From: Gammaproteobacteria bacterium
Lineage (GTDB): Bacteria; Pseudomonadota; Gammaproteobacteria; VBWC01
Reading direction: 5' to 3'
Length of the DNA: 64,000 nt
NCBI GenBank assembly: GCA_006218035.1
Contig: VBWC01000003.1
Coordinates: forward strand, 117,251 to 181,250
The translations under genes were made by a program, and so were the position numbers. Position 1 is the first letter of the stretch, and each line of letters begins with the position of its first letter. The notes under the pieces were generated by a model. It had not been told where the DNA came from and searched no databases. It was given only the letters and a program-made list of their open reading frames with translations. Shown piece by piece: positions 7,398-40,938 of the stretch.

Positions 7398-9338
7398 ATG
7401 GCCGGTGGTTCCGATCCTTTTTCCATAGGGACCAGCGGTCTGCTGGCGTTTCAGCGCGGGCTGACGACGATCAGCCACAATATCGCCAACGTCGATACCG
7501 AAGGCTATAGCCGCCAGCGCGTGGAATTCTCGGCGCGTCCGCCGACACAGCTCGGCAATCTGATCGTTGGCTCCGGTGTCGAGGCAAGCAGCATACAGCG
7601 AGTCTACGACCAATTCCTCGTTCAGGACATACGCAACGACTCGTCACAGTTCAATCGTCACAAGGCGCTGGCGGACTACGCCACGCGGATCGATGAACTG
7701 CTGGCTGACGGCGGTACCGGTATCTCGTCGGTCATGGACAGCTTTTTCAATGCGGTCCAGGGCCTCGCCGATGACCCAGCGTCGACGCCGCGCCGAGACG
7801 TATTGCTCAGCGAGGCCAACAATCTTGCGACTCGTTTTAACTTTTTGTTCGAACGCACGCACCAAATAGAAACCTCGCTGAACGGGCGTATCGAGCAGAA
7901 TATCGGTGAAGTGAATACGCTGGCGACCGAGATAGCGGCGCTTAACACCAATATTTCCGAGGCGAGAAATCGTACGGGCGGTCAGCAGCCCAACGATCTT
8001 CTCGATCAACGCGACACGCTTTTGCTCCGGCTCAGTGAATTCGCCGCGATATCGACCGTCGAACAGGATGATGGCTCGGTCAACGTATCGTTGGGAAAGG
8101 GGCAGGCACTGGTAGTCGGCGGCGCAACCCAGAAACTGACGGTGATACGCGACCAGTACGATCCGACGCGGATTGACGTAGGTTACGGTGGAACCGGCAG
8201 CGCTAATGTCATATCCAGTCAATTGACCGGTGGCTCGATCGCCGGCCTGGTGGATGCGCGGCGCACCATTATCGACTCCAGCTACAACATGCTCGGTCGT
8301 GTCGCGATGGGTGTTGCGAAGACGTTTAACGAGCAGCATCAGCTTGGCACGGATCTGAATGGCAATCCGGGGGCGAAATTCTTCGCGGATATCGCAGCGA
8401 ATGCGCCACAGGCTCTGCCGAGTTCCCAGAATACCGGTACGGCGGCAATTAACGCGGACATTACCAATGTCGGCGCGGTGACGACCAGTGACTATCGCCT
8501 GACGCGTACGGCAGGCCCGGTGTATACCCTAACCAGACTGTCGGACAATACTTCGACGGATATCGGCGCGCTGGGTTTTCCGGGTGGTAGTGTTACCGTC
8601 GACGGGGTGACCTTGTCGCTGGCCTCCGGTGCGATGAGCGACGGCGACACGTTCCTGATCCGCCCGACACACAATGCGGCAAAGGATATTGCGGTGGCGT
8701 TGCGGGAAACGTCCAGTATCGCGGCGGCAGCGCCGATCCGCACTGCGGCTTCGCTCGGCAACAACGGCAGAGCCGTCGTCAGTCTCGGTGCGGTCAATGC
8801 TCCGCCACCGCCCAATGCCAATTTACAGCAGACGGTGACGATTACCTTCGATAACCCGCCGACCACGTTCGACGTTGTTGGCACGGGCACTGGTAACCCG
8901 ACCAACGTCGCGTATACCTCCTCGGGCAGCATCACCTATAACGGCTGGACCATACAGATATCGGGAGCGCCGGTCGCCGGTGATGTATTCACCGTGAGCG
9001 CCAACACTAGCGGCGTCGGTGATAACCGGAATGCGCTGCTGTTGGCGGATCTGCAGAAGCAGTTAACGCTCGAGAATGGCACTGCGACGTATCAGAACGC
9101 GTACGGCTCCTATGTTGCAAACGTCGGCACCACCACCCGTCAGGCGGAAATCAGCCGGGATGCGCAGCAAATCCTGTTGCAGAAATCGCAGGATACGCGG
9201 GAATCCTATTCCGGCGTGAATCTCGACGAGGAAGCGGCGGACCTGCTGAAGTTCCAGCAGCTATACCAGGCGACAGCAAAGATCATCTCGATCGCCGATA
9301 ACATGTTCCAGTCCTTGCTGGACGCGACGGCGAGGTAA
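7398..9338 (+). CDS. flgK: flagellar hook-associated protein 1 FlgK
   Basis: The 646-aa product has the N-terminal LLAFQRGLTTISHNIANVDTEGYSRQR motif and the C-terminal NLDEEAADLLKFQQLYQATAKII motif. Confidence 0.9.
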   Translation: MAGGSDPFSIGTSGLLAFQRGLTTISHNIANVDTEGYSRQRVEFSARPPTQLGNLIVGSGVEASSIQRVYDQFLVQDIRNDSSQFNRHKALADYATRIDELLADGGTGISSVMDSFFNAVQGLADDPASTPRRDVLLSEANNLATRFNFLFERTHQIETSLNGRIEQNIGEVNTLATEIAALNTNISEARNRTGGQQPNDLLDQRDTLLLRLSEFAAISTVEQDDGSVNVSLGKGQALVVGGATQKLTVIRDQYDPTRIDVGYGGTGSANVISSQLTGGSIAGLVDARRTIIDSSYNMLGRVAMGVAKTFNEQHQLGTDLNGNPGAKFFADIAANAPQALPSSQNTGTAAINADITNVGAVTTSDYRLTRTAGPVYTLTRLSDNTSTDIGALGFPGGSVTVDGVTLSLASGAMSDGDTFLIRPTHNAAKDIAVALRETSSIAAAAPIRTAASLGNNGRAVVSLGAVNAPPPPNANLQQTVTITFDNPPTTFDVVGTGTGNPTNVAYTSSGSITYNGWTIQISGAPVAGDVFTVSANTSGVGDNRNALLLADLQKQLTLENGTATYQNAYGSYVANVGTTTRQAEISRDAQQILLQKSQDTRESYSGVNLDEEAADLLKFQQLYQATAKIISIADNMFQSLLDATAR

Positions 9339-9344
9339 GCAGTC

Positions 9345-10538
9345 ATGCGCGTATCCACCGCATTCATGCACCAGCAGGCCATTAACATCATTCTTGATCA
9401 GCAGGCACGTGTCAACAAGACACAACAGCAGATTTCGACCGGCAAAAACGTTCTCAAGCCCTCGGATAATCCTGCCGCCTCGGCCGACATTATGTCGCTG
9501 GAGGAGGCCTTTGCGCGCAGCGTGCAGTATCAGGATAACGCCGAGCGTGCGCGCGCTCGCCTGGGCGTCGAGGAGACAGCGCTGGCCGATATTGCGAACA
9601 CCTTGCAACGACTGCACGAACTCTCGCTCCAGGCCAACAACGCAACGCAGAACGACACCTCGCGTGCGGCGATCGCCAATGAGGTGCGGCTCGTTCTGGA
9701 TGGTCTGATGGACCTCGCCAATCTTCAGGACCCGAATGGGGAATATATATTCTCGGGGTTCAAGACGCAGACGCCGGCGTACTCCCGCAGCGGGGGTGTA
9801 TATACCTATAACGGTGATCAAGGGCAGCGCTTCATCCAGATCGGATCGACCCGCCAGGTGGCGATGAGCGATCCGGGCACCGACGTCTTCTCCAGGATCA
9901 AGTCTGGTAACGGTACATTCTCGGCCAGTGAAAACCCGGCTAACACCGGGACCGGCATCATCGGGCCCGGACGAGTTGTCGGCGCAACCAGTTTTCCGGA
10001 AACCTATACCGTTAGCTTTTTGACCGCGACGACCTATGAGGTACGTGACAGCGGTGCCGGGCTGGTTGCCAGCGGTAACTACGTCGGTGGCGATTCGATC
10101 ACCTTCGCGGGTGTTGAGGTCAAAATAACCGGAGGCCCGGCCACCGGCGACAGTTTTACGGTAACGAACAGTGTGAATCAGGACATTTTCACGACGGTGG
10201 AGAAACTGGCTGCCGCACTTGAAACCAAGACCACGTCCACTGCCGACAAGTCTCACGTCCAGAATTCGATCACGCGGGAGCTGGCGAATATCGAGCGAGC
10301 GCTTGACAACGTACTTGATATCCGCTCGCGCGTTGGCGCAAGAATAAATGCGGTAGAAGATCAAAATAACGTCTCGGAGGGTATCAAGGCCAGCGTACAA
10401 ACTACGCTGTCAAGTATCCAGACGCTGGACCTTTCCGAGGCGGTGAGTCGCCTGAACCGGCAGCTGATCACGTTACAGGCGGCGCAAACGTCATTTCTGC
10501 GGGTTCAGCAGCTGTCGCTGTTCAATTCGATCGGCTAG
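9345..10538 (+). CDS. flgL: flagellar hook-associated protein 3 FlgL
   Basis: The termini are flagellin-like (MRVSTAFMHQQAINII ... NRQLITLQAAQTSFLRVQQLSLFNSIG). It directly follows flgK. Confidence 0.88.
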   Translation: MRVSTAFMHQQAINIILDQQARVNKTQQQISTGKNVLKPSDNPAASADIMSLEEAFARSVQYQDNAERARARLGVEETALADIANTLQRLHELSLQANNATQNDTSRAAIANEVRLVLDGLMDLANLQDPNGEYIFSGFKTQTPAYSRSGGVYTYNGDQGQRFIQIGSTRQVAMSDPGTDVFSRIKSGNGTFSASENPANTGTGIIGPGRVVGATSFPETYTVSFLTATTYEVRDSGAGLVASGNYVGGDSITFAGVEVKITGGPATGDSFTVTNSVNQDIFTTVEKLAAALETKTTSTADKSHVQNSITRELANIERALDNVLDIRSRVGARINAVEDQNNVSEGIKASVQTTLSSIQTLDLSEAVSRLNRQLITLQAAQTSFLRVQQLSLFNSIG

Positions 10539-10680
10539 CCGCGTCGTTTCGGCCGGCAAGATTGCCGTCCAGGGTATCCCCGCTATTCGCAAACCTTCTT
10601 TTCTGTCGCATCACGTAATATCATGCAGGAATTGCGTCACGCGGGTGGGCGTGTGAATTATTATTGGCGGGGAAGGGACG

Positions 10681-11742
10681 TTGAAAATATTTGTCACCGG
10701 GGGCGCGGGGTTTATCGGCTCTGCTGTCATTCGCGACCTGATTACGGGGTCAGAAGACACCGTAGTAAACATCGACAAGCTGACCTATGCCGGCAATCTG
10801 GAATCACTTTCTGCGGTCGAGGCCAATCCCCGCTATACATTTGAACGCGCCGATATCGGCGCGGCTCCGGTACTGCGAAAGCTGTTCGAAAAGTACCGGC
10901 CGGACGCGGTACTGCATCTGGCTGCAGAGTCTCATGTCGACCGATCTATCGATGGACCTGCCCAGTTTATTTACACCAATATCGTAGGAACCTACGCACT
11001 GCTGGAGGAAACCCTGCGGTACTGGCAGTCATTGGGTAGAGAGAGGCGATCGAGTTTTCGTTTCCACCACGTGTCCACCGACGAGGTGTACGGGTCGCTC
11101 GGCGAAACCGGGTTGTTTGGTGAAGATTACCCGTATCAACCCAGTTCACCGTATTCGGCAAGCAAGGCGGCGTCGGATCATCTGGTGCGAGCGTGGCATC
11201 ATACCTACGGTCTGCCGGTTGTTGTCAGTAATTGCTCGAACAATTACGGGCCGTACCAGTTTCCCGAAAAGCTGATACCCCTTGCAATCCTGAATGCGCT
11301 CGCCGGAAAGCCGATTCCGGTATATGGCAATGGCGAAAACGTCCGTGACTGGTTATATGTCGACGATCACGTGCGGGCGCTGCGGATGATACTTGCACAT
11401 GGCAACATCGGTGAAAGTTATAACGTGGGCGGGCATAACGAAAAAACCAATATCGAGGTTGTCGAAACCGTGTGCGGCTTGCTGGATGACCTGCGGCCGT
11501 CGTCCCCCTGTCGTCCGCATGCCTCATTGATAAAGTTCGTTGAAGACCGCCCCGGGCATGACAAGCGGTATGCGATTGACTCCGGCAAGATCGGTCGCGA
11601 GTTAGGTTGGCAGCCGCAGGAAACTCTCGACAGCGGCTTGCGCAAGACGGTGCAGTGGTATCTGGAGAATCAGTCCTGGAGCGAACACATACGTGACGGC
11701 CGATATCGCGGTGAGCGACTGGGTCTGGAGCGTGTGAAGTGA
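10681..11742 (+). CDS. rfbB: dTDP-glucose 4,6-dehydratase
   Basis: It has the N-terminal Rossmann motif [13 protein letters not shown] and the catalytic YSASKAASD motif. It begins at a TTG codon after a GGGGAAGGGA ribosome-binding site. Confidence 0.88.
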
Positions 11743-12626
11743 AGGGGATCATATTGGCAGGTGGCACCGGCACGCGGTTATACCCGCTGACACGGGTCGT
11801 CAGCAAACAGCTTCTGCCGGTGTATGACAAGCCGATGATTTACTATCCGCTGTCGGTTCTGATGTTATCCGGTATACGCGAAATCCTGGTGATTTCGACC
11901 CCGGAGGATCTGCCGCAGTTTCAGAAACTCCTGGGTGACGGATCGCAGTGGGGGCTGTCGTTCGTTTATGCACAACAGCCGCGTCCGGAAGGCATTGCGC
12001 AGGCATTTCTGATTGGTGAGTCGTTTATCGGCAACGACGCTGTATGCCTGGTGCTCGGCGATAATCTTTTTTATGGCCACGGGCTGGTGCGTGCGTTGCA
12101 GGAAGCAGTGGCGCGTCGCACGGGGGCCACGGTGTTTGGTTATCGTGTTCGTGACCCCGAGCGCTATGGAGTACTTGTATTCGATAAAAAAGGAAAGATC
12201 GTTGATATAGAGGAAAAGCCGAAACGCCCGCGTTCCAATATCGCGGTTACCGGGCTTTATTTTTATGATAATGACGTTATCGGTATTGCCAGGCAGATTA
12301 TGCCGTCGGCGCGCGGTGAGCTTGAAATCACCGACGTGACCCGCGCCTATCTTGACCGTGGTGATCTGCAGGTTGAAGTGTTGGGGCGTGGCGCGGCGTG
12401 GCTCGACACGGGCACACACCACTCGCTGCTGGAAGCCAGCCAGTTCATCGAGGTAATCGAGTCCCGCCAGGGCCTGAAGGTCTCCTGTCCGGAGGAAATC
12501 GCGTGGAGGATGGGTTTTATTGATGACGCGCAGTTAGAGATGTTGGCGCGGCCGCTGGAGAGTAGCGGGTATGGTCGGTATCTTCTCGACATGCTTGACC
12601 GCAAGAAATCAGACGATCGCGATTAA
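11739..12626 (+). CDS. rfbA: glucose-1-phosphate thymidylyltransferase
   Basis: The N-terminus [18 protein letters not shown]...[17 protein letters not shown] is typical of RmlA. The GTG start overlaps the rfbB stop. Confidence 0.9.
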
Positions 12627-12648
12627 TCTATATTGGTTCGATACGACA

Positions 12649-13212
12649 ATGAAAATTATCAAAACCAGCTTGCCCGACGTGGTCGTTGTTGAACCCGATG
12701 TATTTGCCGACGTGCGCGGAAAGTTTATGGAAACCTTCCGGGTCAATCGGTATCAGGAGGCCGGAATTCCTGGCCCGTTCGTGCAGGACAATTTTTCCCG
12801 TTCGCAACGCGGGGTGTTGCGCGGTCTACATTATCAGTTGCAAAAACCGCAAGGCAAGCTGGTCCAGGTGCTGCGCGGTGAGGTGTTTGACGTCGCCGTG
12901 GATATCCGGCGCGGATCACCGACCTTTCGCCAGTGGACTGCCGCGATACTGTCGGAGGAAAACAACCGGCAGATGTATATTCCGCCGGGTTTTGCGCACG
13001 GCTTTCTGGTGTTGAGCGAGACCGTCGACTTCGTTTACAAGTGCACTGACTACTATGATCGGGATGACGAATGCGGTGTGTTGTGGTCGGATCCGGCGAT
13101 CGGGATACGCTGGCCGGGCGGTGAGCAGCTTTTGTCAGCGAAGGATAGTGCCTTGCCGGAACTTGCGGCGATACCTGATGAAAAGCTGCCGGTATATCAG
13201 GCGTCACCATGA
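12649..13212 (+). CDS. rfbC: dTDP-4-dehydrorhamnose 3,5-epimerase
   Basis: The RmlC cupin motifs VRGKFMETFR...RGLHYQ...KLVQVLRGEVFDVAVDIR are present. The start was trimmed from the ORF-track coordinate 12571 to the ATG at 12649. Confidence 0.88.
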   Translation: MKIIKTSLPDVVVVEPDVFADVRGKFMETFRVNRYQEAGIPGPFVQDNFSRSQRGVLRGLHYQLQKPQGKLVQVLRGEVFDVAVDIRRGSPTFRQWTAAILSEENNRQMYIPPGFAHGFLVLSETVDFVYKCTDYYDRDDECGVLWSDPAIGIRWPGGEQLLSAKDSALPELAAIPDEKLPVYQASP

Positions 13213-14084
13213 CAATGCTGGTTACCGGTTGTGGCGGGCAGGTGGGAACCGAGCTGCTGCGCCGGGCGCGTGCCCACGGAATCGACGTGATCGGATTGTC
13301 CCACCAGGAACTCGATATCACCCGTTCAGATCAGGTTGATGCCGCTCTGTCGCGATTGCCCGTTACCGTCGTTGTGAATGCCGCCGCTTATACGGCGGTG
13401 GATCGCGCCGAGCATGACAAAGCGGCGGCGTTTGCCGTCAATCGCGACGGCCCTGCCAATCTGGCGCAATTTTGTACCGGGCAGGGAATCCCGTTGATCC
13501 ATATTTCCACGGATTATGTATTCGACGGAAACAAGCCGGGACCGTACACCGAGAATGATCCCGTTGCGCCATTGGGCGTGTATGGGGCGAGCAAGGCGGC
13601 GGGTGAGCAGGCGGTCCGGGAGCTGGCGCCCAAGCATGTGATCCTGCGTACTGCCTGGGTGTATAGCGCCCACGGCCATAATTTTGTCAAAACGATGTTA
13701 AGGCTGGGCCGCGAGCGCGATGAGATTGGCGTCGTGGCCGACCAGGTCGGCTGTCCAACGGCGGCCGGGGAAATCGCGGTAGCCATTATTACCGTGATAA
13801 AGGCGATGCAGGCGGGCGGTGACCCGTGGGGAACCTACCATTTCTGTGCGGCCGGTCAGGCGAGCTGGTACCAATTCGCCTGCCGGATCTTCGAGATTGC
13901 CTCACGTTACCGGCCGTACCCGGTGACGGTAAAGCCTATTCCCGGCACGGCATATCCGACACCAGTACGTCGTCCGGCAAATTCGGTACTGGATTGCTCC
14001 AGAATCGAGGAAACCTTCGACCTAGACCGACGCCCGTGGCCAGGGCCTCTCGCTGACGTTCTCGGCGAAATTCATAATAATTAA
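13209..14084 (+). CDS. rfbD: dTDP-4-dehydrorhamnose reductase
   Basis: It has MLVTGCGGQVGTEL and the YGASKAAGEQ active-site motif. The ATG overlaps the rfbC stop. Confidence 0.88.
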   Translation: MTMLVTGCGGQVGTELLRRARAHGIDVIGLSHQELDITRSDQVDAALSRLPVTVVVNAAAYTAVDRAEHDKAAAFAVNRDGPANLAQFCTGQGIPLIHISTDYVFDGNKPGPYTENDPVAPLGVYGASKAAGEQAVRELAPKHVILRTAWVYSAHGHNFVKTMLRLGRERDEIGVVADQVGCPTAAGEIAVAIITVIKAMQAGGDPWGTYHFCAAGQASWYQFACRIFEIASRYRPYPVTVKPIPGTAYPTPVRRPANSVLDCSRIEETFDLDRRPWPGPLADVLGEIHNN

Positions 14085-14175: not shown

Positions 14176-14203
14176 TAAAGTTATGCTCCCGAACGGCCGT
14201 TAA
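14176..14203 (+). promoter_or_regulatory. sigma-28 (FliA) type promoter upstream of fliC
   Basis: TAAAG is followed by a 16-nt spacer and GCCGTTAA (consensus TAAA-N15-GCCGATAA). It lies about 110 nt upstream of the fliC ATG. Confidence 0.6.
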
Positions 14204-14313
14204 CCTCATCGGAAGCGGTAAAAATTTCCGGTTTTTCGGCAAGTTTATCCGCTAGTGAAAAATCTGAGCCCGGCAACGCCGTTCAAAGGTTGTCAGGGCG
14301 CGAGGAGAGAAAA

Positions 14314-15792: not shown

Positions 15793-15834
15793 TGAACCCG
15801 GAACGAGAAACGAAACTGGTAATAGGTGAGAAAC

Positions 15835-16260
15835 ATGGTTAACGTGATTTCAAATCAGTTAACGACGCTGACCGCCAGCTCCGGGCCGGAGAAGGCGAAG
15901 CCGCCGGTCAAAGTGGATCTACCGGTGGTTGTCGAAGCGCGGCAGGAAATCGCCGCGGACAGGCCAGTATATCCACCGGCGGAGACGGATTCCTCGCAAG
16001 GGCCCAAGAGCAAGGCATCGGACCATGAGTCGGTCAGTGTCGAGGATGTGGCCCGGGCGGTGGCAGAGATCAACTTGCACTTTCAGAATCTGCAGCGCGA
16101 TCTTAAGTTCAGTGTCGACAGGAATAGCGGGCATCAGGTAATTACGGTCCTGGATTCCAAAACGAAGGAAGTGATTCGTCAAATACCCGCGGAAGAAGTT
16201 CAGGCGCTGGCACGGATGCTCCAAGGCGATATGGGGAGCTTGATCAAGACGGAAGCCTGA
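15835..16260 (+). CDS. flaG: flagellar protein FlaG
   Basis: It sits between fliC and fliD and has the FlaG-type C-terminal motif INLHFQNLQRDLKFSVDRNSGHQVITVLDSKTKEVIRQIP. An AGGTGA ribosome-binding site sits 5 nt before the ATG. Confidence 0.8.
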   Translation: MVNVISNQLTTLTASSGPEKAKPPVKVDLPVVVEARQEIAADRPVYPPAETDSSQGPKSKASDHESVSVEDVARAVAEINLHFQNLQRDLKFSVDRNSGHQVITVLDSKTKEVIRQIPAEEVQALARMLQGDMGSLIKTEA

Positions 16261-19439: not shown

Positions 19440-22400
19440 TCACGATTTGCCGGTTTTGGCACTCAGCCCGACGCTGTCAAGAGCAGACCGCAACAGCTCG
19501 ATGTATTGATTCCGTACCGATGTCTTGTGGGCGATCAATCTTGCGGATTCGGCAGCGATGTCCATTGTTCGCAGCCGTTCCACAACGTCAACAGCGGACT
19601 CAACCGACGGATCGATGGTTTTCGATAGAAAACCATTGGCGCTCGTGAAGTATTGCGGCGCCGATATTACAAATGCGGGGATGCCCAGCGAGGCGCACAG
19701 GCCGGCGTCCTGCGCGCGCGTTGTAATCGTCATATCGAACGCATCGTAGATGCGCAGATAGTCAATGGCGTCGCTTGAGTAGTGAAAGTCCATGATATCC
19801 CCGAGCAGCGGCGTCAGCTCGGCGAGCTCACTGATATGGTGGCAGACCAGCGCACACTCGTAGTGCCGGGCGAGTTCCCGGTATAGATTCACGGTGTAGT
19901 GAAAGATCGACGGGTCCAGGCATTCGCTGGTTCTGCGTGATATCCCGGGCGTCGATAACGCGATGCGTTTTGTTTGCGTGCGCCATGTTGCGGTCTTCGC
20001 GCACAGCAACGTTGGGCAAGGCAACTGATGGGGATTCAGCGGGCGAAGCGTATTCCCACACGCTGTGTCGCGAACCGTGACCAGCAGCGAGCGGATAAGT
20101 AACAGTTGATCCAGGACCGCGACTTGCTCGAATTGGAAATCTTCCGTGTCCGACGCTGAGCCCAGGCCCAGATACATGGTCGGTATGGTCGTTTTGATAA
20201 GTCTATCGACCAACGGGCCGGCCATATCGCCTCGCCATGCCGTGATGCCGGTGAAAATTGCCAGATCAGCCGTTTCCAGATTGATGCCTGGATGCCATGA
20301 GTTGTCGCGCGTCGCTGACGGGTCGCGATAGTCGGCAGAGTCACGGCCATACGATCTATCCGGCGCGTCAGACGCTAACTGCGCTATGTCGGGGTGTCGT
20401 CGGTGAACAATCGGGTTGAAGTCCCCGATCAGTTCCGTGAGAAGATTCTGGATGCCATACCGCGCGAACTCCCCGTCCGTGTTGGTTGAGATCAGGATAT
20501 TCGGCCGAACCGTCGGCCGGGAACGATTGAAACGCCGTCCTATCATCAAATTCGGTACGTCGTGCGATCGGTCATAGTAGCGCGCAGGCACCTGGCGGGT
20601 GGCGGCGACGGCACGAAGTTCCGTGGCCAGCGCGGCGAAGGTGCCGGGCCAGTCCTGCGGCTCGGGCTGGCGAAACAGACGCATACTCGGATACCACGGG
20701 CTGTCGCTACGATCGAGCAACCAGCGCCAGTCCGCCACATAGGACAACAGCACCCATACTGGTTTTCCCATCGCTCCGCCAAGATGAGCGACGGATGTAT
20801 CGACGGATATGACCAGGTCCAGGTTTTCAACCAGCGCGGCACTGTCAGCAAACGTTAGTTGTTCGTTGGCCGCGTCGATCAGATGCATCCCCGCTGGCGG
20901 GTTGGCTGTCTGCTCCGCCCCCGTCCCTTTTTGCAGGCTGTGGAAAGTGACGCCAGGTATATCGCAGAGGCGTGCGAAATCTGCGAGCGAGCACGAGCGG
21001 TTCTTGTTATTGGCGTGACGGGGGTTTCCCGCCCACGCGAGTCCAACATTGAGGTGTCCCGGAACCATTTTTTCCTTCCACAAGCCGATACGTGCCGGGT
21101 CGGCGTGCAGATAGGGAACATCATTCGGGATGGTTCTAAACGTCGTACCGAACAGCGCCGGCAGGCTCAGCAGATAGGTGTGATAGTCGAAATCGACATC
21201 GGGTGCGGAACGCGTGTCCTGCACAATGAGCTGGTCGACGCCCTGCAAACCGGTGAAGAGATCGATCAATCCCGGCGGGCACTCGAATATCACATCGGCA
21301 CCCATTGCCTTGAGCATCGGCAGATACCGGACGAAATGCATTGAGTCGCCGATCCCTTGTTCCGCGTGCACCAGAATCCGCTTTCCGGCCAGCGGCTCGC
21401 CTTTCCAGCGCGGCTTTTTCATGGTCCGATGGTCGGGCCGTCGCTCCAGTATCTGGATACGCGATTCGTATGCCTTCCATGCGTCGGCAAAGCGGCCGAG
21501 CGTCAACATCACGATACCCTTGTTCAGATGGGCGTCCGCAAGGTCGGGCTGGATCATTATTGCCTCATCGAACCGGCCGTAGGCCGCGCTATAGTCACCC
21601 ATGTCCTTAAACGCTGTTCCCATGTTCATATGGGCAGCCGCGTAATCGCGCTTGAGCGACAACGCTGAGCGGTAATGCTGTATGGCGCCGGCAAAATCAC
21701 CGTTCGATTTGAGCGCGTTACCGAGGTTGCAATGCGCTTCGGCCATGCCGGGCTGTAGCTTCAGGGCGCTTTCAAAGTAGGCGATGGCGTCAGCGGTCTT
21801 GCCTTGTTGGCAGAGCGCATTGCCATAGCTGTTTAGCGTATGCGCATGTGCGGGATTGATCGCCAGTGCTTTTTCAAATAGCGGTAATGCGTCATCGATG
21901 CGATTTTGTTGCAGCTCCGCGAGCCCCAGGCTGTTCAGGGTGTCGACGTTGTCGGGCTCTATCGTCAGCAGCCGCCGATAACAGGCCGCCGCGGCTGCCG
22001 GCTCGCCCTTGCCATGCTGAAGTTCCGCGAGTATACGCAGCGCGTTGGCGTTGTTTCCGTCGCACTCCAGCGTCCGCCTGAACGCGTGGACTGCGTCGTC
22101 GGCGCGGTTCAGTTTCAACAGCGCGACGCCGAGGTTGAAATGGGCGAGAGAGAATGCCGGAGCGAGCTCCGTCGCTTTCGTAAAATGCTCGATCGCCAGC
22201 TCCGGATTGTTCCGCTTGAGCGCTACGTGCCCGAGGTTGTTGATCGCCTCGGGAAACGCCGGTCGCAGATGCGCTGCGCGGATATAACATTGCTCGGCAT
22301 CGTCGATGCGTTCCAGTTCAAGGTAGATACTGCCAAGATCATTCAGGATGCCCGGTTGTGCGGGGTCGATTGACAATGCCTGCTCACAGTGACGCACCGC

Positions 22401-22808
22401 CTCATCACGCTGCCCCTGGTTCTGCAATAGCCCGGCAAGCGCAATATGCGCCGCCAGATACAACGGGTCTATCGATAGCGCACTGCGGTGACAGGTAATG
22501 GCCTTGGCGGTATCGCCCGCGGCGGCGCAGGCCGAGGCCAGGTTCTGATAGTAGGACGGGGCGCGGGGATTGTGGCTGATTGCCTGTTCGATCAGGCTCG
22601 TCGCCGCCGCCGGATTGCCCTGTTGCAGCTCGGTCACACCCAGCAGATTCAAGGCGTCCGCATGACCGGGACTGGTGGCGAGAATCTTGCGATACAACCG
22701 CGCCGCACGCGCTATGTCGCCGGACTCATGCGCGCGCACGGCATTATCGAGTAATGCTGCGGATCGGGTTCCGACGTCGGCGATTTTCTCGCTGGTGTTA
22801 ATGCTCAT
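19440..22808 (-). CDS. TPR-repeat / GT9 (heptosyltransferase-like) glycosyltransferase with additional C-terminal domain (1122 aa)
   Basis: The N-terminal ~450 aa hold about 12 TPR units (repeated A..Y....L...P..A.A..NLG). The GT9 signatures are KRILVHAEQGIGDSMHFVRYLP and LVISVDTSVAHLGGAMGKPVWVLL. The C-terminal ~380 aa are of unclear family and may be pyruvyl-transferase-like (ITTRAQDAGLCASLGIPAFVIS). Confidence 0.75.
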   Translation of the reverse strand: MSINTSEKIADVGTRSAALLDNAVRAHESGDIARAARLYRKILATSPGHADALNLLGVTELQQGNPAAATSLIEQAISHNPRAPSYYQNLASACAAAGDTAKAITCHRSALSIDPLYLAAHIALAGLLQNQGQRDEAVRHCEQALSIDPAQPGILNDLGSIYLELERIDDAEQCYIRAAHLRPAFPEAINNLGHVALKRNNPELAIEHFTKATELAPAFSLAHFNLGVALLKLNRADDAVHAFRRTLECDGNNANALRILAELQHGKGEPAAAAACYRRLLTIEPDNVDTLNSLGLAELQQNRIDDALPLFEKALAINPAHAHTLNSYGNALCQQGKTADAIAYFESALKLQPGMAEAHCNLGNALKSNGDFAGAIQHYRSALSLKRDYAAAHMNMGTAFKDMGDYSAAYGRFDEAIMIQPDLADAHLNKGIVMLTLGRFADAWKAYESRIQILERRPDHRTMKKPRWKGEPLAGKRILVHAEQGIGDSMHFVRYLPMLKAMGADVIFECPPGLIDLFTGLQGVDQLIVQDTRSAPDVDFDYHTYLLSLPALFGTTFRTIPNDVPYLHADPARIGLWKEKMVPGHLNVGLAWAGNPRHANNKNRSCSLADFARLCDIPGVTFHSLQKGTGAEQTANPPAGMHLIDAANEQLTFADSAALVENLDLVISVDTSVAHLGGAMGKPVWVLLSYVADWRWLLDRSDSPWYPSMRLFRQPEPQDWPGTFAALATELRAVAATRQVPARYYDRSHDVPNLMIGRRFNRSRPTVRPNILISTNTDGEFARYGIQNLLTELIGDFNPIVHRRHPDIAQLASDAPDRSYGRDSADYRDPSATRDNSWHPGINLETADLAIFTGITAWRGDMAGPLVDRLIKTTIPTMYLGLGSASDTEDFQFEQVAVLDQLLLIRSLLVTVRDTACGNTLRPLNPHQLPCPTLLCAKTATWRTQTKRIALSTPGISRRTSECLDPSIFHYTVNLYRELARHYECALVCHHISELAELTPLLGDIMDFHYSSDAIDYLRIYDAFDMTITTRAQDAGLCASLGIPAFVISAPQYFTSANGFLSKTIDPSVESAVDVVERLRTMDIAAESARLIAHKTSVRNQYIELLRSALDSVGLSAKTGKS

Positions 22809-23056
22809 TCGCAGGGCAATCTCTCTTCATTAACTGTCGATCGCGTATCGGTGTAACGATGCTGGCCCTAAAAATGCATAATTTGTACCAGAGCCATCAT
22901 GTTAACGAGTGGACCCGGCATGCCGCTGCGATACCCGCAAAGCGGTCGATTCTTGCCGTATCAAACGATATGCTGGCCGATCACGCAGCAAGTTCCGCGA
23001 TACCCGACAGGCAATGACGACAAATAATTGACCGGAAGAGGCGGGCTGTCGAAGGC

Positions 23057-24880
23057 ATGGCACATACACAAAGGCATGATAGTTCGGTGACGACAGTCCC
23101 AGACAACACTCAGGCGGCAACGATTGATCGATGGATCGACGCGGCCTTGCAACACCACCAGGCCGGCCGTTTGCCCGATGCCGAGGCGCTGTATCGCCAG
23201 GCACTTGTGGAGCAACCCGATCATCCGGATGCACTGCATCTGCTCGGGTTCGTGGCGTATCAGTGCGGCCGGCACCAGCAGGCGCTTGAACTGATTTCGA
23301 CCGCCTTACGCCGCTCCCCGGATGCGCCCGATTTTCACAACCATCTCGGTCTGGTCCTGGCGGCGCTGGGCAGACCGGCAGACGCGATAGCGAGCTATGG
23401 CAACGCCCTGCGACTCGCGCCGGAATTTCCGGAAGCGCATAACAACCTCGGCATCCGGTTGCGCGAAGACGGTCGCCTGACGGAGGCGGAAGCGCACTAC
23501 CGCGCCGCGGTGGCGGCCCGGCCAGTGTTTTCGGATGCGTGGAATAACCTCGGCAACGTGTGTCGTGAACGCGGTGAATTCGATGCGGCCCTGGCGGCGT
23601 ATCGCGAAGCGCTGCGGCAACGGCCCGATTTCGCCGAGGCGCACAGCAATATCTTGTTTACATTGAGCCACTACTTGCTGGCTGATCCGGATCAGCTGCT
23701 GCAGGAACATCAGGGCTGGGACCGCGTGCATGGCGTTGCCGGGCGCGCACACGCCCACGCGCATCCGCGTCGCGGGGATCCGGAAAAACGCCTGCGTATC
23801 GGCTATGTATCGCCGGATTTTCGTTTGCACGCCGCGAACAGTTTCTTTGAGTCGCTGATCGCCGCGCACACCCGCGACGCGGTAGAGATCTTCTGTTACG
23901 CCGAAGTATCCCGGCCGGATGCGGTGACAGAGCGCATCCGCGTGAACGCCGATGTTTGGCGGAGTACCGTGGGGCTGTCGGATGACGCGCTCGGGCGGCA
24001 GATTCGCGACGACGGTATCGATATTCTGGTCGATCTGGCCGGGCATACGACCGGCAACCGGTTGCGCGTGTTTACCGGGAAACCGGCGCCGATACAAGTA
24101 TCTTATCTCGGCTACTGCGCGACGACCGGCCTGACCGCGATGGACTACTGGATTACCGACGGGGTGATTCACCCGCCCGATACGATCGAAAGGACAGTCG
24201 AAGCGATCATCCGGTTGCCGCGCTGCTGGGTGACCTACCGGCCGCCTGTGGACGCGCCGCCGGTTCGTTTACCGGCACGCAGTGGTATTACGTTCGGCTG
24301 TTTTAACGAACGTTCCAAGATCACGCCAGCCACGATCGCGCTGTGGAGCAGTATCCTGCTCGAACTGCCTGATGCCCGCCTGGTGCTCAAGGCGCGCCAG
24401 TACGCCGATGACAGTGTCCGGCAGGCGATCATCGATACCTTTACGCAGCACGGGGTGGCCGCAAACCGGTTGGTGTTTCTGCCAGCTACCGGTTACCTCG
24501 ATTACCTCGCCGCCTATCAAGACGTCGATATCGCGCTGGATCCGGTACCTCGCGCGGGCGGCGTGACCACAGCGGACGCGTTGTGGATGGGCGTGCCGGT
24601 GATCACCTTGTGCGGGCAGCGTTTCATCGAGCGCCACGGCGCGAGCCTGTTACGTGCCGCCGGCATGGACGAGTGGATCGCCGTGACGCCGCGGGATTAC
24701 GTTGACAAGGCGCTGGCGCTCGCGCGTGACCACGTGCACCGGCGTACTATGCGGCTGGCCCAGCGTGACCGTATGGCGGCGTCGCCATTGTGTGACGCAT
24801 TGGCCCATGCGCGCGCCATGGAACAAATCTACCGGGACATGTGGCGCGCATACGTGCGCAACACACCCCTGACTTCATGA
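23057..24880 (+). CDS. TPR-repeat protein with C-terminal GT41 (O-GlcNAc-transferase/SPINDLY-like) glycosyltransferase domain (607 aa)
   Basis: About 5 TPR units span aa 25-200. The C-terminal domain carries RIGYVSPDFRLHA...APIQVSYLGYCATTG...GGVTTADALWMGVPVITLCGQRFIERHGASLL, typical of the bacterial OGT-like family (COG3914). Confidence 0.8.
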   Translation: MAHTQRHDSSVTTVPDNTQAATIDRWIDAALQHHQAGRLPDAEALYRQALVEQPDHPDALHLLGFVAYQCGRHQQALELISTALRRSPDAPDFHNHLGLVLAALGRPADAIASYGNALRLAPEFPEAHNNLGIRLREDGRLTEAEAHYRAAVAARPVFSDAWNNLGNVCRERGEFDAALAAYREALRQRPDFAEAHSNILFTLSHYLLADPDQLLQEHQGWDRVHGVAGRAHAHAHPRRGDPEKRLRIGYVSPDFRLHAANSFFESLIAAHTRDAVEIFCYAEVSRPDAVTERIRVNADVWRSTVGLSDDALGRQIRDDGIDILVDLAGHTTGNRLRVFTGKPAPIQVSYLGYCATTGLTAMDYWITDGVIHPPDTIERTVEAIIRLPRCWVTYRPPVDAPPVRLPARSGITFGCFNERSKITPATIALWSSILLELPDARLVLKARQYADDSVRQAIIDTFTQHGVAANRLVFLPATGYLDYLAAYQDVDIALDPVPRAGGVTTADALWMGVPVITLCGQRFIERHGASLLRAAGMDEWIAVTPRDYVDKALALARDHVHRRTMRLAQRDRMAASPLCDALAHARAMEQIYRDMWRAYVRNTPLTS

Positions 24881-27189
24881 GCGTCAACCAACATATCGCG
24901 GGATCGCGGCTCGACAAACTGCTGGCCGACGCGGTGGCGCTGCATCAGGCCGGGAATCTCGCCGCGGCAGATACCCTGTATCGCGAGGCGCTGGCGATTG
25001 ATCGGCAACTCCCCGGCGCACTTTACGGTGCCGGTGTGGTCGCTCATCAGCTGGGCCACAACGATACGGCGATCGAATTGCTCGATGCGGCGCTACGCCA
25101 TCGTCCCGATGAACCGGCCTGGCTCAACATGCGCGGTCTGGTGTATGCGGCAATCGGCCGGATTGAGATGGCGCTCGAGGACTTTCAGCATGCCATCAGG
25201 CTTGAGCCGGACTTCGCCGAGGCGTACAACAGCATCGGTGTGACGCTGCGCAAGCAGGGTCGGGTCGATGAGGCGATCGAGTATTACCGGCAGGCGATTG
25301 AATGTCGTCCGGACCTCGTTATGGCGCATAACAATCTTGGCAACGCTCTCAAGAGCAAAGGGGCGCTCGACGCAGCGTTAGACCATTATCGCCATGCCTT
25401 GACGCTGCAGCCGGATTTCGTCGAGGCGATCAACAATCTCGGTACGGTCTACACGATGCAGGGGTCACTCGACGAGGCGCATGACGCATTCGAAAGAGCA
25501 CTGCAACTGCGGCCGGAATACCCGGACGCGCTGAATAATCTTGGCGTGGTTTATCAGAAGCGGGGAGACATTTCAGCCGCGCGGCAGTGCTTCGAGCGCG
25601 CGCTCCGGATCAGTCCGGGATTCGCCGCCGCGCACGCGAATCTGGCGTCCGCGCAGAATGCGCAGGAGGAGTTTTACAACGCGATCGAGTCTTGCCGCCA
25701 GGCACTGGCGATTGCGCCGGAGTTTCCCGAGGCCTATTTCAACCTGGGCATTGCGTTCAAGGATCTCGGTTTGCCGCTGAAGGCGCTGAAATACTTCGAA
25801 ACCGCCGTCAGACTGCGGCCGAACTACGCTGGCGCCTACAACGGCATCGCCAACGTCTGCCGCGACCAGGGGCAATTCGAGCTGGCCGGAACGTTCTATC
25901 GTGAAGCGTTGAGCGCTGATCCAACGAACCATGAAGTACATAACAATCTGCTGTTTACCATGAGCCATCACGTGATGACCACTCCGGAGGCGTTACTGGA
26001 GGCGCATCGGGACTGGGCGGCTAGCCATTGCCATGAAGGACGGGTGCATCGGTATACGCACTCTCCCGCGACGGCCCATGACGGGCGACGCTTGCGTATC
26101 GGTTACGTGTCACCGGATTTCCGCCGGCATGCCGCCGCCATCTTTCTGGAGCCGTTGCTCGCGGCTCACGACCGGCGGGTCGTCGAGATTTATTGTTACG
26201 CCGAACTTGTCCGTACCGATCAGGTGACCACGCGCTTCCGTCAGAGCGCGGACGCCTGGCGCGATACCGCCGGGATGAGCGACACGCAGCTGGCCCGACA
26301 GATCGTCGATGACCGGATCGATATCCTTGTCGATCTGGCCGGGCATACCGCCGGCAATCGGTTGACGATGTTTGCCTTCAAGCCGGCACCGGTGCAGGCG
26401 ACCTATCTCGGCTACTGTGCGACCACCGGTCTGGAAGAAATCGATTACTGGATCAGCGACGACGTGATACATCCGGCGGATACCTGCGAACTGGCGGTTG
26501 AGCAGATCCTGCGGTTGCCGCGCTGCTGGGTGAGTTACCAGCCGCCGGTCGATGCGCCGGAGGTGCAGATATCGCAACACGATCACATTACATTCGGATG
26601 TTTCAATGACCGCAGCAAGATCACGCCGGAGGTGGTCGCTGCGTGGAGCGGGATTCTCGATCGCGTACCTGGTTCGCGGTTGGTGCTGAAAGCGCGCCAG
26701 TACGCCGATGCGGACATCAATGCCGAGCTGATCGGTATGTTCCGGCAACATGGTATTGACGCGACGCGGCTCGAGTTCCAGCCGCTGTCGCTGCCCGGCG
26801 AATATCTGGCCAGTTATCACGCGATCGATATCGCGCTCGATCCGTTCCCGCGGCACGGCGGCGTTACTACGGCGGATGCCTTGTGGATGGGTGTGCCCGT
26901 GGTGACGCTGATTGGCGAGCGGTTCATCGAACGGCATGGTGCCAGCCTGCTGGCGGCAATCGGCGCACAGGACTGGATTGCCCAAGACCTCGAATGCTAT
27001 ATCGAGATCGCCGTGGCGTTGGCAGCGGATCCCGGTCGGCGTCACGCGTTGCGCCTGACGCAGCGGCAACGCGTGCGCGAGTCACCGTTGTGCGATCCGC
27101 AGGGATTGGCCAGGGCGATGGAGGGGCTCTATCGGCGGATGTGGCGCCGATATGTCCAATCGGCTTACGGTTCAACTCCCGCTTGCTAG
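24877..27189 (+). CDS. paralogous TPR-repeat / GT41 (OGT-like) glycosyltransferase (770 aa)
   Basis: The TPR array is longer (about 10 units), and the C-terminal domain is near-identical in motifs to the upstream gene (RIGYVSPDFRRHA...APVQATYLGYCATTG...GGVTTADALWMGVPVVTLIGERFIERHGASLL). Its ATG forms an ATGA overlap with the upstream stop. Confidence 0.8.
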   Translation: MSVNQHIAGSRLDKLLADAVALHQAGNLAAADTLYREALAIDRQLPGALYGAGVVAHQLGHNDTAIELLDAALRHRPDEPAWLNMRGLVYAAIGRIEMALEDFQHAIRLEPDFAEAYNSIGVTLRKQGRVDEAIEYYRQAIECRPDLVMAHNNLGNALKSKGALDAALDHYRHALTLQPDFVEAINNLGTVYTMQGSLDEAHDAFERALQLRPEYPDALNNLGVVYQKRGDISAARQCFERALRISPGFAAAHANLASAQNAQEEFYNAIESCRQALAIAPEFPEAYFNLGIAFKDLGLPLKALKYFETAVRLRPNYAGAYNGIANVCRDQGQFELAGTFYREALSADPTNHEVHNNLLFTMSHHVMTTPEALLEAHRDWAASHCHEGRVHRYTHSPATAHDGRRLRIGYVSPDFRRHAAAIFLEPLLAAHDRRVVEIYCYAELVRTDQVTTRFRQSADAWRDTAGMSDTQLARQIVDDRIDILVDLAGHTAGNRLTMFAFKPAPVQATYLGYCATTGLEEIDYWISDDVIHPADTCELAVEQILRLPRCWVSYQPPVDAPEVQISQHDHITFGCFNDRSKITPEVVAAWSGILDRVPGSRLVLKARQYADADINAELIGMFRQHGIDATRLEFQPLSLPGEYLASYHAIDIALDPFPRHGGVTTADALWMGVPVVTLIGERFIERHGASLLAAIGAQDWIAQDLECYIEIAVALAADPGRRHALRLTQRQRVRESPLCDPQGLARAMEGLYRRMWRRYVQSAYGSTPAC

Positions 27190-39100: not shown

Positions 39101-40840
39101 ATGAAGTTAGTCCTGCTCAACCCTTTTACACGAATGCACATCCGCAGCCGGTTGCTGCTGGGTTTTGGCACGCTGATCCTGATTATCTGCGGCGGCTACG
39201 CGATCAGTTCGACCAATCTTATATACCTGCAACGCGAACAGGCGAAGATTCCCGAGGCGATGCACCAGGTTGAGGTCGCAGTGGGCGATGTCCTCACGTT
39301 GCGGCACGCACAGCAACTGGTCCTTAAGTGGGGCTACCCGGTGCTCCAGGAGCGAACCACACTGGAAAAATATTTTGTTACCGACGGCGTCGCTGCGCAA
39401 CAGGGTATATATGAGGAGTTTCAGCGACTGGGTGATGAAATCGATAACATTGCCACCCAATTGAGCAGCGTCATATCGGACAAGCAAGCCGCGACAAAAA
39501 TTGCCGAGATACAGAGTCAGCAACAGAAAATTCATCTGGCTGCGATCGAGGTTATTGCCGCGTTCGATGGCGAGGGCGAATTTGGCGACGAGGCGCAGTC
39601 GCAGTTGGCAGCGTTTGTTCAGCAGATTGATGTGCTTCTGTCATTGATACTGGGCTTCGAACAATTAGTGAACGAAAAGGGCGAGCTTGCCACCGATATT
39701 CAGAGCGACCGATTTCAGGCGGTCGCCAGGAACATCGAAGGATCAAAACAGGTTATTGCAGCGTCGCAATACATCAGCCTGTTCCTTGTCCTGGTTGGGT
39801 TGGCGTTCGCCATGTCGGTCAGTGTGATGATCTACCGATCGATCGTTCTTCCTTTACGGTATTGCACGATGCTCTCGCGGCGCATCGCCGCGTTCGATCT
39901 GAGACTGGACAACAGCCGTGACGCGCCGACCGGGCCCGATGCATTGTCGCGGCTCGCGGCCGATTTGAACTCGATGCGCTCGTCATTGCGTGACCTGATT
40001 GAAAAGATCGTTGCGGCGGCCAATCACCTCAGTGTTTCGGGTGATGAGTTCCAGCGTTCCTCGGTGCGGGTTCGGGAAGTGGCTGGCAGCCAGGCGGCGA
40101 GGTCCGGCGACGCGTCGGCCGCAACAGGGCAGATGTTGGCGACGGTCCAGGAGATTGCCCGGGCAGCAGGCGAAACAGCCGAATTTTCGCATCAGGTTGA
40201 TGAGAAGGTTCGGTACAGCGCCGATGTCGAGGCCAAGGTGACACTTGAAGAGATGGAGCACGCGATTCAGGCGGTTGATGCGAACAACGAAGAGATCCGG
40301 TTTGTTTCCGGTTCGGCAAAAGAGGTTGGTGAGATCGTCGGTTTCATCAGCGGTGTTGCCGAGCAGACCAACCTCCTCGCGTTGAACGCCGCCATTGAGG
40401 CAGCCCGGGCCGGTGAGCATGGCCGCGGATTTGCGGTAGTTGCTGACGAGGTGCGTAATCTGGCGAAGCGAACGAAGGAGGCCACGGCCGAGATAAAGGA
40501 AAAGGTCGAGCGCATGCAGGCCGAGGTCCGTAAGGCCTCGACCAGAATGGACAGCAGCCGTGAGTCTGTGCGGCGCGGTTCGGTTGCGGTCAACCGGATT
40601 GTCGATCTGTTGCGGGAAATCGAGACCATGAACACCAAGTTGCGCGTGCTCAACGAGAATATTGCGGCGTCCACGGAAGAGCAAACGAATACATCGGAAG
40701 AGATCGCCAGGAGTGTCGCGGGCGTGAATACCAGCTGCGGCGACCTTACGAAACATGCGGAAGATATCCATGCTCAGGCCAAAGGTGTCTATGACATGAC
40801 GGAAACCATCAGCAAAGAAATAATGAAATTCAAGATTTAG
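39101..40840 (+). CDS. methyl-accepting chemotaxis protein
   Basis: It has two transmembrane segments flanking a ~180-aa periplasmic region, then HAMP. The highly conserved MCP signalling domain [38 protein letters not shown] is present. Confidence 0.9.
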
Positions 40841-40938
40841 CGGGAGTATAGTTGTATCTGTAAACGGCTGGTTCACGGTGATCCCGGCCGGCGCAGAAAA
40901 AAAGAACGTGACAGTCATGGACGGGAGGGGACAGTGCC

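Follow-up and report, generated by a model that had tools for sequence, protein, structure and literature searches.

Flagellin glycosylation islands lying upstream of fliC, and a pool of dTDP-L-rhamnose that serves both the flagellin glycan and LPS, have been described for Pseudomonas (PMC3958885), as the initial annotation of the present locus had presumed. The flagellin glycans of Pseudomonas are linked through rhamnose (PMC3958885), and the flagellin rhamnosyltransferase FgtA is a GT2 enzyme (PMC11833859). By comparative genomics, rml genes and GT41 enzymes were found in the flagellin glycosylation islands of Enterobacteriaceae and Geobacillus (De Maayer & Cowan 2016; PMC4875605, PMC5109656). 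In Caulobacter, FlmG is a flagellin O-glycosyltransferase composed of TPRs and a GT-B domain, and its TPR domain binds flagellin (PMC7591256). The GT41 activities named in the literature consulted are the transfer of O-GlcNAc, O-fucose and N-glucose. To our knowledge, no rhamnose-transferring member of GT41 or GT9 is known so far.

The locus described here belongs to an uncultured groundwater-type gammaproteobacterium, which is not a Pseudomonas but a member of an unrelated MAG lineage. It was analysed within a 64-kb stretch of DNA, referred to as the window. Like the Pseudomonas islands (the a- and b-type of P. aeruginosa; fgt1/fgt2 and the viosamine island of P. syringae), it lies directly upstream of fliC in a polar regulon of the fleQ/fleSR/fliA type. 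In Pseudomonas, however, the transferases are in the island and rml is elsewhere, whereas here the reverse is seen; moreover, the candidate transferases are GT41 and GT9-like proteins with TPR arrays, unrelated to the GT2 enzyme FgtA. Like the enterobacterial and Geobacillus islands, many of which carry GT41/SPINDLY-domain transferases, the locus has rml genes within the flagellin locus; for both, the reading is drawn from genomics. Most enterobacterial islands lack rmlB, all four genes being present only in Erwinia billingiae, whereas the set is complete here. Unlike those islands, the present one is in two blocks, parted by fliC-flaG-fliD-fliS-fliT. In enterobacteria, most GT41s carry a fused methyltransferase domain, whereas the methyltransferase here is a separate TPR protein in some relatives only. 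In architecture, the aspect compared, the candidates resemble FlmG, which has N-terminal TPRs and a C-terminal GT-B domain and acts in the cytoplasm before export; FlmG is a single enzyme that transfers pseudaminic acid, whereas there are three such proteins here.

The rml genes between flgL and fliC

The first block and its surroundings comprise the following features.

7398-9338: flgK, upstream of the rml block and before flgL
9345..10538, + strand: flgL, hook-filament junction protein, which bounds the insert on its upstream side (TIGR02550, 296 bits vs cut-off 127)
10612..10624, + strand: conserved 13-nt block CACGTAATATCAT, about 57 nt before the rmlB start codon
10681..11742, + strand: rmlB, dTDP-glucose 4,6-dehydratase, TTG start (TIGR01181, 487 bits vs 365)
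11739..12626, + strand: rmlA, glucose-1-phosphate thymidylyltransferase, GTG start (TIGR01207, 489 bits vs 361)
12649..13212, + strand: rmlC, dTDP-4-dehydrorhamnose 3,5-epimerase (TIGR01221, 249 bits vs 156)
13209..14084, + strand: rmlD, dTDP-4-dehydrorhamnose reductase (TIGR01214, 315 bits vs 224)
14176..14203, + strand: sigma28 (FliA)-type fliC promoter downstream of the rml block, an exact match to TAAAG-N15-GCCGWTAA
14314..15744, + strand: fliC flagellin, the presumed acceptor (flagellin family matches)

Four co-directional ORFs, rmlB, rmlA, rmlC and rmlD, span 10681-14084 of the + strand. The initial annotation had described a complete rmlBACD set there, and this holds, as all four ORFs exceed the equivalog cut-offs of NCBIfam and their catalytic and cofactor motifs are preserved: GGAGFIG, T133-D-E and Y158SASK in RmlB, GGTGTRL in RmlA, RGLH, K70 and HGF in RmlC, and GCGGQVG and Y125GASK in RmlD. 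With 4/4 enzymes above these curated cut-offs and with motifs intact, the dTDP-L-rhamnose pathway is predicted to be complete. Since RmlC and RmlD are present and an aminotransferase is absent, the end product should be L-rhamnose and not a viosamine-type sugar. The position of the block is also as annotated: by family matches flgL lies upstream and fliC downstream, and the interval holds rmlBACD only, with no glycosyltransferase and no further ORF that has a family match. The operon had been called compact and overlapping. Compact it is, but overlap occurs at only 2/3 junctions, namely 4 nt at rmlB/rmlA and 4 nt at rmlC/rmlD, while a 22-nt gap separates rmlA from rmlC. For rmlC, the mechanical ORF is 12571-13212, and the HMM match begins only at ORF residue 28; the true start is likely the ATG at 12649, giving 187 aa, equal to the gene call in the related locus L013.

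Downstream of the rml block the order is fliC, flaG, fliD, fliS and fliT. The central domain of FliC (residues 171-385) is 30% Ser+Thr. It may be noted that FliD is unusually long here (686 aa). The same locus was found, identical, in independent assemblies (ENA ERZ27284380 and Logan SRR8438314), and it is therefore no assembly chimera. We also considered whether the rml block is foreign by composition; this was rejected, its GC content (0.55-0.60) being indistinct from that of the adjacent fliC-fliS region. Within the 64-kb flagellar regulon, no sugar-nucleotide pathway other than rmlBACD is encoded, and there is no second rml copy in the window.

The region between flgL and rmlB (10539-10680) was searched for regulatory signals. 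No sigma54 site was found there with TGGCAC-N5-TTGCW and up to 2 mismatches, nor a sigma28 site with the TAAAG-N15-GCCGWTAA consensus. A GG/GC pair in this region was discarded as a flagellar promoter, its spacing being wrong and the pair not being kept in L013. The terminator scan between the two genes remained at background level, and folding of the same stretch as a structured leader was no better than that of shuffled sequence (z = -1.2); these results speak neither for nor against read-through from flgKL. Rfam gave no match across the whole window. The sole conserved element upstream of rmlB is CACGTAATATCAT, which occurs once in the window and is invariant in the window, in L003 and in the diverged L013, while the surrounding spacer varies (alignment A1). 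It is possibly a −10-type promoter element or a regulator site. For the fliC promoter, TAAAG and GCCGTTAA were present in 5/5 clade members, the −10 element being column-invariant (alignment A2).

The TPR proteins between fliT and fleQ

The initial annotation had placed the transferases in the fliT-fleQ insert, and candidates of this kind were found there: two predicted TPR-GT41 proteins (PF13844) and one TPR protein with a GT9-like domain. No other transferase-like gene occurs in the 64-kb flagellar regulon.

19440..22808, − strand: 1122-aa protein with TPR, GT9-like and pyruvyltransferase-like parts (Pfam TPR matches, fold search)
22863..22890, in the spacer of the divergently oriented transferase genes: a pair of sigma54-like sites that overlap and point in opposite directions, TGGCCCTAAAAATGCA on the + strand and TGGTACAAATTATGCA on the − strand
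23057..24880, + strand: GT41a, TPR + GT41 (SPINDLY-family) glycosyltransferase (PF13844, 176 bits vs 25)
24841..27189, + strand: GT41b, TPR + GT41 (SPINDLY-family) glycosyltransferase (PF13844, 179 bits)

The 1122-aa protein begins with a TPR array, which is followed by a GT9-like GT-B domain at about 440-745 and a polysaccharide-pyruvyltransferase-like domain at about 780-1060. PF01075 scored 20.5 bits vs a gathering cut-off of 22, with E=3e-4 when the middle part was taken by itself, and thousands of homologs share the TPR+PF01075 combination. The non-TPR part gave no sequence match to solved structures. In an AF2 model (pLDDT 79.5), the top Foldseek matches were the GT9 structures 3tov, WaaF and WaaC, at a TM of about 0.52 normalised to target length; judged by the fold of this model, the middle domain would be GT9-like. 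PF04230 exceeded its gathering threshold in the homologs P0122, P0124 and P0135. Among the Pfam matches listed (best 25 families for the full-length TPR proteins), no GT2 domain appeared in either insert.

Both GT41a and GT41b have PF13844 after TPR repeats and align with SPINDLY over nearly its full length. Arabidopsis SPINDLY was the best PDB match of GT41a (E=9e-125) and likewise of GT41b (E=5e-139). SPINDLY, a GT41 protein O-fucosyltransferase, transfers a 6-deoxy-L-hexose. Its TPRs and catalytic domain align with those of both proteins, and the equivalents of D491, H495, N661 and K665 are kept. The equivalents of S496, Y744 and T748, in contrast, are Ala, Arg and Val in GT41a as well as in GT41b; human OGT has Cys at the Y744 position. 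Because these pocket residues differ, GT41a and GT41b are GT41 members but not orthologs of SPINDLY or OGT. The Y744-equivalent is Arg in 121/122 members of the subfamily, including members from non-flagellar loci; hence this Arg is uninformative on rhamnose, and the attempt to deduce the donor from this position of the SPINDLY pocket was dropped. In none of the three transferases did we find a sequence feature that points to dTDP-rhamnose. Homologs of GT41a at up to 57% identity sit in unrelated contexts, and none of the contexts of GT41a homologs outside the clade showed GT41, rml and flagellar genes as a module.

The bidirectional sigma54-like element between the divergent genes does not vary among the window, L016 and L017, where the spacer that holds it averages 62% identity (alignment A4). 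It adjoins the genes for the sigma54 activators fleQ and fleR.

Distribution of the two inserts

The flgL-rmlBACD-fliC layout is kept in at least 5 diverged clade members, with RmlD 69-100% identical. It is present in L003, L013, L014 and L015, whose RmlD is 84, 80, 72 and 69% identical, respectively, to that of the window. Between L013 and the window, the rml genes are 80-89% identical and flgK/flgL about 90%. This slightly greater divergence of rml fits vertical co-inheritance better than it would a recent insertion, with which it is not consistent. In L003, L013, L014, L016 and L017, fliT is followed by the TPR-GT9 gene, and the GT41 pair is present in L016 and L017. A TPR-methyltransferase gene was seen in L013 and L017, but was absent from the window and L016; it suggests a methylated variant of the glycan in some relatives.

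About 30 flagellar loci of outgroups (L004, L005, L008 and about 25 that were FliD-anchored) have neither insert, absence being scored where flgL-fliC or fliS-fleQ was visible. A FliD-anchored metagenome scan yielded only distant loci (up to 42%), none with either insert. Across the clade, the rml block and the fliT-fleQ insert co-occur. Phylogenetically this counts as one event or as two on the same branch, and hence the co-occurrence has little statistical weight. Beyond the clade, the closest relatives of RmlD come from diverse taxa and are about 60% identical, which amounts to a generic background.

Flagellin glycosylation islands are recognised by glycan genes beside the flagellin gene within the flagellar cluster, by at least one glycosyltransferase, and by variable presence or content among relatives. 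Glycan genes adjoin fliC within the flagellar cluster here; a glycosyltransferase is found in the fliT-fleQ block and not in the flgL-fliC block; and the outgroups lack the inserts while the methyltransferase gene is patchy.

A split flagellin glycosylation island as the favoured reading

What is observed is that the genes are intact and syntenic, that the two parts occur together, and that a sigma54-type element is conserved beside the transferase genes. With moderate confidence, we read this as a flagellin glycosylation island split in two, which supplies dTDP-L-rhamnose for O-glycosylation of flagellin. RmlA, RmlB, RmlC and RmlD would turn glucose-1-phosphate and dTTP into cytoplasmic dTDP-beta-L-rhamnose. 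The genes between fliT and fleQ would provide three soluble enzymes, all of them fusions of N-terminal TPRs with a transferase domain of the GT-B type. On the model of Caulobacter FlmG, these TPR arrays may dock on unexported flagellin, and the catalytic domains may O-glycosylate Ser/Thr of its central domain before export, with dTDP-L-rhamnose as the donor for at least one of them. GT41 and GT9 are inverting families, so that the product would be an alpha-L-rhamnoside. We infer flagellin as the acceptor, the pairing of donor with enzyme and the glycan itself; the initial annotation had held a rhamnose flagellin glycan to be implied, which is too strong a word, although such a glycan is what the evidence best supports. 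In favour of a split island, the rml genes and the TPR proteins are the sole pathway and transferases in the regulon, the layout is stable, the outgroups miss both inserts, and the invariant sigma54-like element stands at the transferase genes, beside fleQ/fleR. Against it, rmlB has no sigma28 or sigma54 site, the GT41 pocket is unlike that of SPINDLY, and GT41a homologs occur in unrelated contexts.

The lack of a flagellar-type promoter upstream of rmlB would also suit a general-purpose operon for exopolysaccharide, for the O-antigen or core of LPS, or for other rhamnosylated targets, its site being a historical accident and the TPR transferases using other donors. Operons of rml genes are mostly LPS- or CPS-associated (10.1101/854612), the RmlD relatives outside the clade are a generic background, and the transferase sequences do not fix the donor. 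We nevertheless consider this unlikely: the position is stable down to 69% RmlD identity with LPS and polysaccharide genes absent nearby, the block co-occurs with a transferase insert that the outgroups lack as well, and the flgL-fliC slot is a documented site of flagellin glycosylation islands (PMC3958885). A possible, if doubtful, account that overlaps the favoured one is dual use, in which the sole rml copy of the cell feeds both flagellin glycosylation and LPS, as the initial annotation had put conditionally. In P. aeruginosa, the flagellin glycan draws on the same dTDP-L-Rha as LPS (PMC3958885). Housekeeping supply would be in keeping with an rml promoter of non-flagellar appearance, and no second rml copy occurs in the 64 kb of genome inspected.

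It is very improbable that the rhamnose goes to a target other than flagellin, such as the arginine of EF-P (EarP-type) or the hook, cap or sheath. The length of FliD may be counted for it, and dTDP-L-rhamnose does have other proteobacterial protein targets, as in the EarP/EF-P system. The window showed no earP-like gene, however; the TPR-GT architecture matches that of the flagellin-directed FlmG; and the islands of this kind in the literature consulted have flagellin as their acceptor.

Within the split-island reading, a more specific and quite tentative proposal is that at least one TPR GT41 (Arg-pocket) or GT9-like enzyme is a flagellin O-rhamnosyltransferase that uses dTDP-L-rhamnose. The glycan may then be pyruvylated (PF04230-like), and methylated in some relatives, each modifying enzyme being TPR-tethered to flagellin.

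The locus is most likely such a split island, a type of system known already but found here in a new lineage and layout. As flagellin glycosylation islands with rml and GT41 genes have been described before, the general picture is unchanged. If the split-island reading is true, rhamnose-type flagellin glycosylation would extend to an uncultured environmental gammaproteobacterial lineage, and the locus would be a compact, self-contained kit of sugar supply and three acceptor-tethered cytoplasmic transferases. Moved to E. coli, such a kit could reveal what is transferred by the TPR-GT41 and TPR-GT9 proteins that abound in bacteria. Were the rhamnosyltransferase proposal also true, it would give the first donor assignment for the very large bacterial subfamily of Arg-pocket GT41 proteins.

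The rmlBACD operon in a polar-flagellum regulon

The whole window belongs to a single large polar-flagellum regulon. Its genes run flgD-L, rmlBACD, fliC-flaG-fliD-fliS-fliT, an insert of three genes, tPilZ, fleQ-fleS-fleR and fliE-K, followed by genes for an MCP and a porin-like protein, fliL-R, flhB-A-F, fleN, fliA, cheA/B, motAB and cheW. When species-representative genomes were scanned with FlgL as anchor, one close relative was obtained (MAG 'Gammaproteobacteria bacterium nzgw581', FlgL 97% identity); the remaining matches were distant (39–48%) and came from gammaproteobacterial or Woeseiaceae-like MAGs. Hence, the host is not a Pseudomonas, yet the regulon is arranged in the Pseudomonas manner.

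Four co-directional ORFs were listed in 10681–14084 (+), with flgK and flgL as 5′ neighbours and fliC, flaG, fliD, fliS and fliT as 3′ neighbours. All four products, RmlB, RmlA, RmlC and RmlD, clearly exceeded the equivalog cut-offs curated by NCBIfam, and the usual cofactor and catalytic motifs were complete in all of them; the genes are therefore not decaying copies, and the operon reported between flgL and fliC in the initial annotation is real. Identical DNA was recovered on independent assemblies. The mechanical rmlC ORF begins at 12571, with a family match only from residue 28; a start at ATG 12649 gives 187 aa, equal to the length of the gene called in the related locus L013. No family match other than rmlBACD was obtained in the flgL–fliC interval, confirming that the rml genes are its sole occupants. 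The description of the operon as overlapping holds for rmlB/rmlA and rmlC/rmlD (4 nt each) but not for rmlA/rmlC, which are separated by a 22-nt gap. The operon is the only sugar-nucleotide pathway in the 64-kb window.

Some other features of the regulon may be noted. The MCP and porin-like (PF13609) genes (39101–42063) are inserted between fliK and fliL and have a GC content of 0.53–0.57, lower than the ~0.62–0.65 of the flanks. The atypical PilZ gene (tPilZ, PF16823; 27152–27829) lies directly upstream of fleQ, as in the related loci L016 and L017, and may feed a c-di-GMP signal into the flagellar master regulator. At 60804–62684 (-) there is a response-regulator GGDEF-EAL gene. FliD (16324–18384) is unusually long (686 aa), and family models cover mainly residues 1–397 and the C-terminus, which implies an additional, centrally placed domain in this filament-cap protein.

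Transferase-like genes of the fliT–fleQ insert

Within the 64-kb window, transferase-like genes were found only in the fliT–fleQ insert.

Transferase-like genes of the insert
19440–22808 (-): 1122-aa protein with TPR, GT9-like and pyruvyltransferase-like domains (TPR-GT9 gene)
23057–24880: TPR-GT41 protein, PF13844 176 bits
24841–27189: TPR-GT41 protein, PF13844 179 bits

The N-terminal ~440 residues of the 1122-aa protein are TPRs. The next ~300 are weakly GT9-like in Pfam (E=3e-4, just under threshold) and group with the TPR + PF01075 proteins, a very large family; the AlphaFold model of this domain has a pLDDT above 90, and its top structural matches are the heptosyltransferases WaaC, WaaF and 3tov. 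Over its last ~380 residues, the protein shares 55% identity with the matching part of the L016 protein, which, together with two other full-length homologs, gives a full-length, above-threshold match to PF04230 (polysaccharide pyruvyltransferase). The PF04230-scoring relatives of this third domain (window 19440–20500) are P0122, P0124 and P0135; Pfam did not detect the domain in the window's own copy. Judging from this homology, the presumed flagellin glycan may be pyruvylated. In many TPR-GT9 homologs (alignment A3, homologs of window 19440–21497) the unit is duplicated, giving a TPR-GT9-TPR-GT9 protein of ~1100 aa, whereas in the protein of the clade a pyruvyltransferase-like domain takes the second position. 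L013 (16281–18332) and L017 (4231–6363) have an additional gene, for a TPR-methyltransferase, between fliT and TPR-GT9; it is absent from the window and L016, and such a polymorphism suggests possible glycan methylation variants.

Plant SPINDLY, a 6-deoxy-L-hexose (fucose) transferase, was the best solved-structure match of both GT41 proteins, with alignment almost end to end. The equivalents of D491, H495, N661 and K665 are conserved in both, whereas Y744, S496 and T748 are replaced by Arg, Ala and Val, respectively. Y744 is the pocket-gating residue of SPINDLY (PMC9715652); human OGT, unlike the TPR-GT41 subfamily with its Arg, has Cys917. Arg was found at this position in 121 of the 122 sampled subfamily members (window 23057–27189 with homologs P0241–P0360), clearly non-flagellar loci included. 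It is thus a family trait, and the pocket Arg was ruled out as a rhamnose signature. The bacterial TPR-GT41 subfamily is very large, with thousands of members at >50% identity.

Conservation and regulation of the two inserts

The closest RmlD relatives found by tblastn (84, 80, 72 and 69% identical) are all in the same position. The order flgL-rmlBACD-fliC was seen in L003 (the sister MAG) and L013; L014 shows rmlCD-fliC, and in L015 the 5′ end of fliC comes after rmlBACD. In L003, L013, L014, L016 and L017, the gene after fliT is the TPR-GT9 gene; in the last two, the GT41 pair, tPilZ and fleQ come next. In contrast, in the outgroups with visible intervals (L004, L005, L008 and ~25 FliD-anchored metagenome loci), flgL is directly adjacent to fliC, and fliS to fleQ, and neither an rml set nor a GT41 or GT9-like gene was found. 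Wherever the intervals are visible, the two inserts thus occur together without exception; this reflects one event or two on the same branch, and not many independent ones. Compared with L013, the rml genes are 80–89% identical and flgK/flgL ~90%; being slightly more diverged, the rml genes appear consistent with vertical co-inheritance, which argues against a recent insertion.

Nucleotide identity to L003 is ~93–96% along flgKL and rmlBA, and falls to ~80% over the rmlC 3′ end/rmlD 5′ end (12800–13700) and to ~75% over flaG (15794–16093), a mosaic that suggests local recombination or diversifying selection. A distant relative, L035 (35% identity in FliD), carries an RmlC-like gene (40% identity) at ~position 500, ~7.5 kb upstream of fliC; this gene could belong to a separate flagellin glycosylation island.

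fliC has its own exact sigma28 consensus (14176–14203), both elements being present in 5/5 clade members. Its 5′ leader (~14204–14275, roughly 75–85 nt) is almost invariant among five members whose coding differences reach 15%, and contains GGA motifs, one at the ribosome-binding site; no Rfam match was obtained, and folding was not significantly better than for shuffles (z = -1.2). The leader may be a post-transcriptional control site. Between the TPR-GT9 and GT41 genes (22863–22890), two overlapping, divergent sigma54-like sites (TGGCCCTAAAAATGCATAATTTGTACCA) show the expected GG-N10-GC spacing. The 28-nt element does not vary among the window and the diverged L016 and L017, whereas the remainder of the spacer is ~62% identical, and so the transferase genes are plausibly under the FleQ/FleR-sigma54 tier. 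Upstream of rmlB, neither a sigma28 nor a sigma54 site was found, the sole conserved feature being a unique 13-nt block, CACGTAATATCAT. As no terminator was found between flgL and rmlB, read-through may occur; a regulatory link between rml and the flagellar cascade is therefore hypothetical.

Proposed mechanism and known systems

By standard pathway chemistry, RmlA, B, C and D would yield dTDP-beta-L-rhamnose. On the acceptor side, which we infer, TPR arrays would bind flagellin and present it to the fused GT-B domain in the cytoplasm, as the TPR N-domain of cytoplasmic Caulobacter FlmG can do (PMC7591256). Every modifier of the island, including the optional methyltransferase, has a TPR array, and the central domain of flagellin is 30% Ser/Thr. 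Since GT41 and GT9 are inverting families, transfer would give an alpha-L-rhamnosyl-O-Ser/Thr linkage, as in the P. syringae flagellin glycan. The initial reading, that the operon implies a rhamnose flagellin glycan, is reasonable but over-stated; its placing of remote transferases in the fliT–fleQ insert agrees with the three genes there.

For Pseudomonas, it is textbook knowledge that such islands lie upstream of fliC, that flagellin glycans are rhamnose-linked and that LPS draws on the same dTDP-Rha pool (PMC3958885). There, however, the transferases are in the island and rml elsewhere, whereas here rml occupies the flgL–fliC interval and the transferases the fliT–fleQ insert; FgtA is a GT2 enzyme (PMC11833859), while the present candidates are GT41 and GT9-like. 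Comparative genomics has placed rml cassettes in flagellin glycosylation islands of Enterobacteriaceae (mostly without rmlB, unlike the complete four-gene set here) and Geobacillus, and has catalogued SPINDLY-domain GT41 enzymes in those of Enterobacteriaceae (PMC4875605, PMC5109656). In a genomic survey, surface-appendage genes were likewise noted on the flanks of rml genes (10.1101/854612). Particular to this locus are the complete rml set, the two-block split around fliC-fliT, the TPR-tethered GT41/GT9-like/pyruvyltransferase-like enzyme set and the host lineage. The locus would be a convenient system for testing what Arg-pocket GT41 and TPR-GT9 enzymes transfer.
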